IMG/VR virus record: IMGVR_UViG_2681813226_000005
Origin: a virus
Taxonomy: Duplodnaviria > Heunggongvirae > Uroviricota > Caudoviricetes
DNA length: 6,660 nt
Strand: one strand, 5' to 3'
This document shows positions 3,181 to 3,634 of this stretch, piece after piece; positions within the stretch are counted from its first letter, which is position 1, and the number at the start of each line of letters is the position of its first letter. Below the pieces are notes generated by a model, which was not told where the DNA came from, searched no databases, and saw only the letters and a list, made by a program, of their open reading frames with translations. A program made the position numbers and the translations under genes.

Positions 3181-3208
3181 TTGCTGTAAAGCGAGAGTTA
3201 AGTAGAAT
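3181..3208 (+). promoter_or_regulatory. Candidate sigma70 promoter of the hok/mok mRNA
   Basis: TTGCTG (3181-3186), 16-bp spacer, TAGAAT (3203-3208). The predicted transcription start near 3215 places the mRNA 5' end at the segment complementary to the 3' fbi element, giving a transcript of about 420 nt, as expected for hok mRNAs. Confidence 0.4.
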
Positions 3209-3269
3209 TGCTGCGGGTGCTTGAGGCTGTCTGCCTCGGGCATGCCACCGTAAGGCAGACAGAGAAAAG

Positions 3270-3335
3270 CCCCAGTTAACATTACGCGTCCTGCAAGACG
3301 CTTAACATTAATCTGAGGCCCAATCTATGCTTCAC
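3270..3335 (-). ncRNA. sok: Candidate Sok-like antisense RNA (approximate boundaries)
   Basis: A minus-strand promoter-like TTGCCT (plus 3365-3370), 17-bp spacer, TAACCT (plus 3342-3347) would start transcription near 3335, antisense to the mok initiation region. This matches the usual hok/sok architecture. The 3' end is not defined. Confidence 0.3.
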
Positions 3336-3539
3336 AAACGTAGGTTAGCCTCTTACGCGCCGAAAGGCAAGGAGAAGCAGGTTATGAAGCAGCAAAAGGC
3401 GATGTTAATCGCCCTGATCGTCATCTGTTTAACCGTCATAGTGACGGCACTGGTAACGAGGAAAGACCTCTGCGAGGTACGAATCCGAACCGGCCAGACG
3501 GAGGTCGCTGTCTTCACAGCTTACGAACCTGAGGAGTAA
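3327..3539 (+). CDS. mok: Mok-like overlapping reading frame (in-frame N-terminal extension of hok, 70 aa)
   Basis: An upstream in-frame ATG gives MLHKRRLASYAPKGKEKQV followed by the Hok sequence. This resembles the chromosomal MokC arrangement as I recall it. Confidence 0.45.
   Translation: MLHKRRLASYAPKGKEKQVMKQQKAMLIALIVICLTVIVTALVTRKDLCEVRIRTGQTEVAVFTAYEPEE
3384..3539 (+). CDS. hok: Hok/Gef-family type I toxin (51 aa)
   Basis: Translation MKQQKAMLIALIVICLTVIVTALVTRKDLCEVRIRTGQTEVAVFTAYEPEE is near-identical to recalled E. coli HokC/Gef and HokD/RelF sequences. RBS AAGGAGAA at 3368-3375. Confidence 0.88.
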   Translation: MKQQKAMLIALIVICLTVIVTALVTRKDLCEVRIRTGQTEVAVFTAYEPEE

Positions 3540-3588
3540 GAGACCAGGCGGGGGAGAAATCCCTCGCCACCTCTGATGAATCAGGCAT

Positions 3589-3605
3589 CCTCAACGCACC
3601 CGCAC
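3589..3605 (+). promoter_or_regulatory. fbi-like 3' element of the hok mRNA, complementary to its predicted 5' end (3213-3226)
   Basis: 3' CCTCAACGCACCCGC pairs with 5' GCGGGTGCTTGAGG over 14 bp with one bulged base. Hok-family mRNAs use this long-range fold-back to stay translationally inactive. Confidence 0.5.
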
Positions 3606-3607
3606 TT

Positions 3608-3634
3608 AACCCGCTTCGGCGGGTTTTGTTTTTT
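3608..3634 (+). terminator. Rho-independent terminator of the hok transcript
   Basis: AACCCGC-TTCG-GCGGGTT hairpin followed by TTGTTTTTT. Confidence 0.75.

Follow-up and report, generated by a model that had tools for sequence, protein, structure and literature searches.

A hok/mok/sok-type toxin-antitoxin locus of the HokD/HokW subgroup with a complete leader in the nin region of a Stx-phage-like lambdoid prophage

Among the described type I toxin-antitoxin (TA) loci of the hok family, hokW-sokW of Sakai prophage 5 (Sp5; Stx2 phage VT2-Sakai) is one of the closest to the locus considered here (Takada et al. 2021, PMC8621323). We analyzed one strand of a 6,660-nucleotide (nt) stretch of DNA from a virus of the class Caudoviricetes (IMG/VR record IMGVR_UViG_2681813226_000005), hereafter called the window, in which positions 3181–3634 carry a locus of the hok/mok/sok type, consisting of a toxin gene (hok), an upstream reading frame that runs through it (mok) and a candidate antisense RNA gene (sok). 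The hokW-sokW locus was established experimentally as a type I TA system: upon RecA-dependent prophage induction, Sok disappears, HokW appears, lysis occurs earlier and approximately twice as many phages are released; the step of induction that removes Sok was stated to be unknown (PMC8621323). The other systems with which the window can be compared are hokD (relF) of the Qin prophage of Escherichia coli K-12, the hok/mok/sok locus (parB) of plasmid R1, for which a role in plasmid stabilisation is proven, and the hokC/mokC/sokC (gef) loci.

The locus DNA of the window is 91.8% identical to that of hokW-sokW, and the two share the leader architecture with an extended hairpin (sokT, which on the other strand forms the terminator hairpin of Sok), the sok promoter hexamers and a 70-codon mok frame in phase with hok. 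They differ at the C-terminus of the toxin (TAYEPEE in the window versus VDYESEK in HokW) and at 4 of 14 nt in the part of the leader that the 5΄ tail of Sok would recognise, so that cross-protection is not guaranteed. In addition, hokW is located close to an end of the Sp5 provirus rather than in the nin region, and is not followed by the terminator sequence of the window. The K-12 hokD gene encodes an identical toxin of 51 amino acids (aa), has the same 3΄ untranslated region (UTR), fold-back inhibitory element (fbi) and terminator, and occupies the same position relative to rem, DUF968/ydfU and a Q-like gene. However, its homology with the window extends only from approximately 17 nt upstream of the ATG through the terminator; relBE replaces the leader, and the K-12 locus lacks the translational activator (tac), the ucb box, the sokT hairpin, the mok start and the sok promoter, whereas the leader in the window is complete. 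An earlier reading of the window from its letters and open reading frames (ORFs), made with no database searches (the sequence-only reading), had drawn this contrast with Qin hokD correctly, and no relBE lies upstream in the window, as it had pointed out. The R1 locus shares with the window its elements, its predicted two-state fold and its Pfam and Rfam families (PMC9841398). Its toxin is distant, HokW (86% identical to the Hok of the window) being 44% identical to R1 Hok (PMC8621323), and its mok begins 58 nt upstream of hok in a different frame (positions 116 and 174; PMC9841398), compared with 57 nt and in frame in the window. The sokT/Sok hairpin of the window also has an extra apical stem of approximately 17 nt, and the R1 locus is plasmid-borne. 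Finally, the hokC loci (L014–L021 among the loci fetched in this study) have a toxin that is 82% identical, the same tac and fbi, and a mok that is in frame in most copies, but they differ in a short sokT hairpin without the apical extension, in a sok –35 element reading TTGACC, and in being chromosomal and not part of a phage nin region.

We judge, with a probability of roughly 90%, that the region is an intact member of the hok/mok/sok type I TA family, belonging to the HokD/HokW subgroup and located in the nin region of a Stx-phage-like lambdoid prophage. Computed here were the sequence elements, two alternative mRNA folds, the conservation and covariation of these folds, and the identity of the toxin. 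The sequence-only reading had proposed a complete locus at 3181–3634, and every element that it listed was found at or near the position given for it. The elements concerned with translation are as follows.

3384–3539, plus strand: hok toxin gene, 51 aa, assigned by Pfam HOK_GEF, PHROG 251 and identity to K-12 HokD.
3369–3374, plus strand: hok Shine-Dalgarno (SD) sequence AAGGAG, read from the sequence; it overlaps the sok –35 element on the opposite strand.
3327–3539, plus strand: mok reading frame, 70 codons, in frame with hok, with its ATG 57 nt upstream of the hok ATG.
3315–3318, plus strand: mok SD sequence GAGG, 8 nt upstream of the mok ATG; it pairs with ucb in the full-length fold or with dcb in the truncated fold.
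3522–3524, plus strand: codon TAC for Tyr47 within UUACGAA, a candidate site of TadA A-to-I recoding (Tyr to Cys).

The identification of the Hok ORF, for which alignment to the Hok/Gef family had been suggested as a check, was borne out: the protein matched the full profile of Pfam PF01848 (HOK_GEF) at 82.9 bits (cut-off, 22 bits) and PHROG 251 ('MokW-like host killing') at 114.7 bits, and was 100% identical to E. coli K-12 HokD, which served as a toxic control in a recent preprint (10.1101/2025.08.07.668861). In NCBIfam, only sub-cut-off matches to Hok-family models were found (48.5 versus 73 bits), which gives the right family with no equivalog-level call, and the search of solved structures with Hok returned no meaningful match.

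For comparison, we fetched 53 loci encoding Hok relatives from species-representative genomes and aligned the 37 that had recognisable ends, which span Escherichia, Shigella, Kluyvera, Citrobacter, Pseudocitrobacter, Photorhabdus, Pantoea, Erwinia and Kalamiella. In this alignment, the sequence CAAGGAG at the hok SD was nearly invariant. The in-frame Mok extension that had been proposed is real, in that the frame starting at the ATG at 3327 stays open through hok and comprises 70 aa. The mok ATG lay 57 nt before the hok ATG in 28 of the 37 loci, and in the others the distance was 58 nt (4 loci) or 56 nt (5 loci); the position of the mok start is conserved and its frame is not, and an in-frame mok is not a constant of the family. 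This variability fits the published view that translation of mok matters, and not its product. The heptamer TTACGAA was invariant (37/37), and editing at the position of Tyr47 has been reported for the hokB, hokC, hokD and hokE mRNAs in the preprint (10.1101/2025.08.07.668861). If editing occurs here, it would be an additional layer of control on toxicity.

The regulatory RNA contains four short elements that, in the predicted folds, pair in two alternative ways.

3215–3226, plus strand: tac, GGGUGCUUGAGG, whose partner is fbi in the full-length fold and ucb in the truncated one; kept in 37/37 loci.
3589–3601, plus strand: fbi, CCUCAACGCACCC, which pairs with tac, C3595 being bulged.
3267–3273, plus strand: ucb, an anti-SD box reading AAGCCCC, which pairs with the mok SD in the full-length fold and with tac in the truncated fold.
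3348–3352, plus strand: dcb box, GCCUC, which pairs with the mok SD region GAGGC (3315–3319) in the truncated fold.

A 14-bp complementarity between the two ends of the locus had been noticed previously. The segments 3213–3226 (GCGGGTGCTTGAGG) and 3589–3603 (CCTCAACGCACCCGC) do form 14 pairs at these coordinates; the duplex is interrupted by one bulged C (3595), leaving a perfect core of 9 nt, and 12 of the pairs (3215–3226 with 3589–3601) fall within the predicted transcript and are conserved. This tac/fbi pairing closed the minimum-energy fold of the whole mRNA, as expected from the proposed match to the fold-back inhibition structure, and in the same fold the mok SD (3315–3318) was paired with GCCCC of the box at 3267–3273. 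When the 3΄ end was removed (3215–3588), the predicted fold switched to a tac/ucb pairing (GGG-GCUU with AAGC-CCC) together with the SD/dcb stem. The predicted folds reproduce the closed and open states described for R1 hok mRNA (PMC9841398).

Loss of the complementarity in homologues, which would have spoken against the proposal, was not seen. All 37 loci retained the tac/fbi pairing, and compensatory changes were seen at tac positions 4, 9, 10, 11 and 12: position 4 is U-A in 23 loci and C-G in 11, position 12 is G-C in 23 and A-U in 11, and alternative standard pairs occur at positions 9, 10 and 11. The two pairings of the truncated fold were almost invariant, and they therefore indicate strong conservation with no covariation signal. 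In tac/ucb (7 pairs), a single cell was unpaired across the 37 loci (99.6% paired), and the five pairs of SD/dcb were kept throughout (37/37, 100%), four of them never varying and one showing a single G-U change.

The predicted transcript is bounded by the following features.

3181–3208, plus strand: putative hok/mok promoter, with –35 TTGCTG (3181–3186), a 16-nt spacer and –10 TAGAAT (3203–3208).
3215–3634, plus strand: putative full-length hok (mok-hok) mRNA of approximately 420 nt, with a predicted 5΄ end and the intrinsic terminator as its 3΄ end.
3547–3568, plus strand: G+C-rich stem-loop of 9 bp, present in both folds and conserved in the alignment of 37 loci.
3608–3634, plus strand: intrinsic terminator with a 7-bp stem and a 4-nt loop (3608–3625), followed by a T run.

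The promoter predicted by the sequence-only reading stands as far as its hexamers and homologous position are concerned, a TAnnnT hexamer being found at an equal distance from the conserved GGG in the homologous loci. It was not called in a consensus sigma-70 scan of positions 2900–3800, its –35 element matching at only 3 of 6 positions. The single plus-strand promoter that the scan did call (3302–3331) lies within the leader and is not conserved as a promoter, and it was set aside. We place the 5΄ end of the mRNA at approximately 3215 because the complementarity is not conserved beyond the GGG (3213–3214) and because of the spacing from the –10 element; conservation in the family begins at this same point. 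The minimum-energy fold of 3215–3632 was –176.6 kcal/mol, with a z-score of –7.8. Toward the other end, the hairpin at 3547–3568 is a probable protector of the 3΄ end of the processed mRNA, by analogy with R1 (PMC9841398), and its conserved position upstream of fbi is consistent with a processing stop in slow 3΄ trimming. The Rfam family RF01794 ('sok') matched 3215–3389 at 114.9 bits (threshold, 59 bits) over all model positions (1–157 of 157). A check against Sok covariance models had been suggested previously; the score is high, but the match lies on the hok-sense strand, and it thus identifies the leader and not antisense expression. As a separate observation, a perfect 16-bp palindrome, TATGGGAATTCCCATA, lies at 3151–3166 just upstream of the hok –35 element. 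The window contains a single copy, against a chance expectation of 0.01, and the palindrome recurs in the E. coli O157:H7 strain SS52, in phage PPompW and once within a coding gene of a Photorhabdus locus. We found no link between this palindrome and hok regulation.

On the minus strand, the leader contains the parts expected of the antitoxin gene.

3342–3370, minus strand: putative sok promoter, with –35 TTGCCT (3370 to 3365), a 17-nt spacer and –10 TAACCT (3347 to 3342).
3265–3335, minus strand: putative Sok antisense RNA of approximately 70 nt, with a 14-nt single-stranded 5΄ tail, a long hairpin and a U run; the ends are placed to within a few nt.
3273–3315, plus strand: long hairpin (sokT; the Sok terminator hairpin on the other strand), including both copies of TTAACATTA and an apical extension at 3285–3301.

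The hexamers of the candidate antisense promoter are identical to those of the sokW promoter of Sp5, the spacer differing at one base. Mutating this –10 element in sokW (the 'pro-less' construct, made with primers YO-421/422) removed the protection against HokW, which was regained in part when sokW was provided in trans (PMC8621323). The candidate is thereby matched to a validated promoter, although the consensus scan missed it as well, its –10 element agreeing at only 3 of 6 positions. Both promoters of the locus rest on positional homology rather than on consensus strength. The predicted fold of Sok had an energy of –29.2 kcal/mol and a z-score of –5.7, and its free 14-nt 5΄ tail covers the mok AUG. 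The predicted size agrees with the 71 nt of sokW that are complementary to the hokW 5΄ UTR (PMC8621323). At the sequence level, an antisense sok gene with a promoter in the mok 5΄ region and a terminator hairpin is present. Variation within the leader was greatest between the mok SD and dcb (3320–3340 in the window, columns 109–131 of the alignment), the zone that the 5΄ tail of Sok would recognise; this variation could keep paralogous hok/sok copies in one genome from cross-talking.

A direct repeat in the leader had also been described, flanking a small hairpin. The two copies of TTAACATTA are exact at 3276–3284 and 3302–3310, and a hairpin does lie between them, but it is the apical extension of the sokT/Sok hairpin and not a separate structure. 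A 9-mer repeat within approximately 500 nt is about what chance would give. The copies occupy opposite arms of the hairpin at 3273–3315, and the arms are A/U-rich with a self-complementary UUAA, so that they also read as a direct repeat. The 17-nt apical extension is missing from the Rfam consensus and was found in 10 of the 37 loci, including Sp5 hokW, with compensatory changes; in two loci (L023 and L025), the pairing of the hairpin was kept and the direct repeat was not. The extension is a subgroup feature and not an insertion scar. We considered and rejected the possibility that the repeat is a target-site duplication or the excision scar of an insertion sequence (IS), the 17 nt between the copies being the apical hairpin conserved in the 10 loci.

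We propose a mechanism by homology with plasmid R1 hok/sok and Sp5 hokW-sokW; where transcription starts, how the 3΄ end is processed, how Sok acts, whether Hok is toxic in this setting and what the locus does biologically are all inferred. A weak constitutive promoter (3181–3208) would yield the mRNA of approximately 420 nt, which would be inert at full length, with tac (3215–3226) clamped to fbi (3589–3601) and ucb (3267–3273) hiding the mok SD. Slow 3΄ trimming back to the hairpin at 3547–3568 would remove fbi, after which tac would pair with ucb; the mok SD would then lie in the short SD/dcb stem and become usable. Ribosomes starting from the mok AUG (3327) would pass through the hok start region, and Hok would be made. 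As long as it is supplied, Sok of approximately 70 nt (3335 to 3265, from the promoter at 3370–3342) would pair with the mok start region of the processed mRNA, block translation and trigger cleavage. Once the supply of Sok ends, the membrane toxin would accumulate.

The window corresponds to the early-right (nin) part of a lambdoid prophage such as those found in E. coli O157:H7, and approximately 290 complete genomes match it at 99.9% identity in two pieces. The genes all lie on the plus strand, in the order end of replication gene P, DUF1627 protein, small ORFs, hok locus, ORF of unknown function, DUF968, RusA, antiterminator Q and three tRNA genes. The placement of the locus inside the early-right operon was therefore read correctly, the replication genes, hok, DUF968, rusA and Q all lying on a single strand, and no IS element interrupts the locus, as had been noted. 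The window has a junction between rusA and Q (5340–5343), where 'TAA' stands in place of approximately 118 nt present in SS52. At this junction, rusA lacks its 3΄ end (an ORF of 108 aa compared with approximately 119 aa in SS52), and Q lacks its start codon and approximately 18 codons, the Pfam match to Q starting at profile position 34. The junction was absent from the IMG/VR viral contigs, and none of the complete E. coli genomes searched contained it as a single piece. Late-gene activation may have been lost in a prophage with Q damaged in this manner. There are nine base differences between the window and SS52, six of which lie at the 3΄ end of the hok locus: AA versus TG at 3579–3580, and four further changes (3636–3641) just past the terminator. 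The other E. coli-type copies that we fetched carry TG at the position equivalent to 3579–3580.

The most likely role of the locus, as judged by analogy with hokW-sokW, is to help in lysis and killing upon prophage induction, in prophage addiction, or in both. The sole tested function of a prophage-borne relative is faster phage release on induction, and not prophage stabilisation (PMC8621323). Several points weigh against an intact and active system with this role. Neither of the two promoters is recognised by a simple sigma-70 consensus scan, and expression of this particular copy is deduced from its sequence. Sok production, neutralisation of Hok and Hok toxicity in this copy would follow by likeness to the approximately 92%-identical hokW-sokW. 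On this sequence, the tac/fbi pairing only modestly beats chance, 49 of 2000 shuffles of the 3΄ UTR giving an equal pairing; its weight comes from its being kept across the homologues and not from the single sequence. The private AA-for-TG change at 3579–3580 falls in a hairpin loop just before fbi, with no predicted effect. Moreover, the prophage here is apparently without a Q start, so that a role in phage release may not hold for this copy. Finally, the chromosomal hokA, hokB and hokC were reported, as summarised in the preprint, to be unable to mediate post-segregational killing (10.1101/2025.08.07.668861).

The last of these points also favors the alternative that the locus is structurally intact and functionally silent, a hitch-hiking relic similar to chromosomal hokA, hokB and hokC. 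The preprint also summarises reports that chromosomal hok/sok does not respond to rifampicin (10.1101/2025.08.07.668861), and the weakness of both promoters by consensus and the damaged rusA-Q junction of the carrier prophage point in the same direction. Decayed copies were common among the fetched homologues: four lack tac (L005, L006, L027 and L045, of which L006 is the K-12-like Qin form), one lacks fbi (L015) and a Shigella copy has a frameshifted Hok (L047). The copy in the window, however, shows none of these defects. All of its regulatory elements are present and several are invariant across genera, a pattern that points to purifying selection both on the RNA and on the protein. In addition, the close paralogue hokW-sokW is active from a single prophage copy (PMC8621323), and R1 hok is lethal from a single chromosomal copy once Sok is removed (PMC9841398). 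A silent relic is accordingly possible but, in our view, unlikely.

Alternatively, the main role might be abortive-infection defence against other, lytic phages rather than maintenance or release of the prophage; shut-off of host transcription would lead to decay of Sok and killing by Hok. Defence genes are common in prophages, and T4 plating fell by 42% when R1 hok/sok was present on a high-copy plasmid, as cited in PMC8621323. However, no PADLOC defence model matched Hok or Mok (no family in PADLOC-DB at E ≤ 0.01), hok genes were not enriched near defence systems according to the preprint (10.1101/2025.08.07.668861), and the sole tested prophage-borne relative helped its own phage (PMC8621323). 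These observations make defence as the main role quite unlikely.

Within the preferred reading, in which Hok assists lysis, killing or addiction of the prophage, one further route is conceivable. The locus lies within, and is co-oriented with, the N-antiterminated early-right operon, and induction could switch Hok on directly. Read-through from pR would meet the sok promoter head-on and would carry the target of Sok, and it would thereby block Sok synthesis and soak up the Sok already made. We consider this direct control very doubtful. If true, it would answer how induction removes Sok in hokW-sokW, and Hok might be the main killing function left after induction in this Q-damaged prophage.

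We also considered whether the 3΄ part (3548–3629) might be a separate Hfq-binding sRNA resembling isrK, and not only the hok 3΄ UTR, and rejected this for practical purposes. The Rfam match suggesting it (RF01394; 27.1 bits, E = 0.00028 when 221 nt were searched) falls far under the threshold of 50; two generic hairpins and a terminator account for the alignment, in which little sequence is shared; and a stability hairpin, fbi and the terminator, each conserved in the hok family, explain the whole segment. A sub-threshold match of the 3΄ UTR to rsmX was discarded together with it as a generic hairpin/terminator match.

Elsewhere in the window, two tiny hydrophobic ORFs lie directly upstream of hok, at 2924–3001 (25 aa) and 3036–3140 (34 aa). 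In SS52, the second carries a hypothetical-protein annotation, and neither matched a family in Pfam, NCBIfam or PHROG. Downstream of Q, a hairpin followed by a T run (5985–6072), with weak sub-threshold matches to isrJ, isrK and leader peptides, is probably the late promoter and its terminator. The three tRNA genes (6190–6439) have the anticodons CAT, TCG and TCT, as in Stx phages.

Of 5426 complete E. coli genomes, 4739 contained DNA matching the locus, with a median of 2 sites and a maximum of 11 in any one genome. Matches were also present in 611 plasmid records and in 79 phage records, where the names in use include MokW, host killer and gef. PGAP annotates the window-type gene as hokD, with 98.8% identity in O157 genomes, and phages mEp460 and PPompW carry the locus at the same nin position. 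A survey likewise found Hok in almost 80% of Enterobacteriaceae genomes, with enrichment in prophages, as stated in the preprint (10.1101/2025.08.07.668861). The locus, its structure and its family membership are already established in databases and in the literature, and the importance of the present copy beyond its correct annotation is slight. The locus in the window is what an intact ancestor of the truncated K-12 hokD (relF) looks like, and it is a further example of a complete hok/sok copy from the nin region of a Stx-phage-like prophage. Copies of this kind bear on the timing of lysis and on the release of phage and toxin in enterohaemorrhagic E. coli, as was shown for hokW-sokW.

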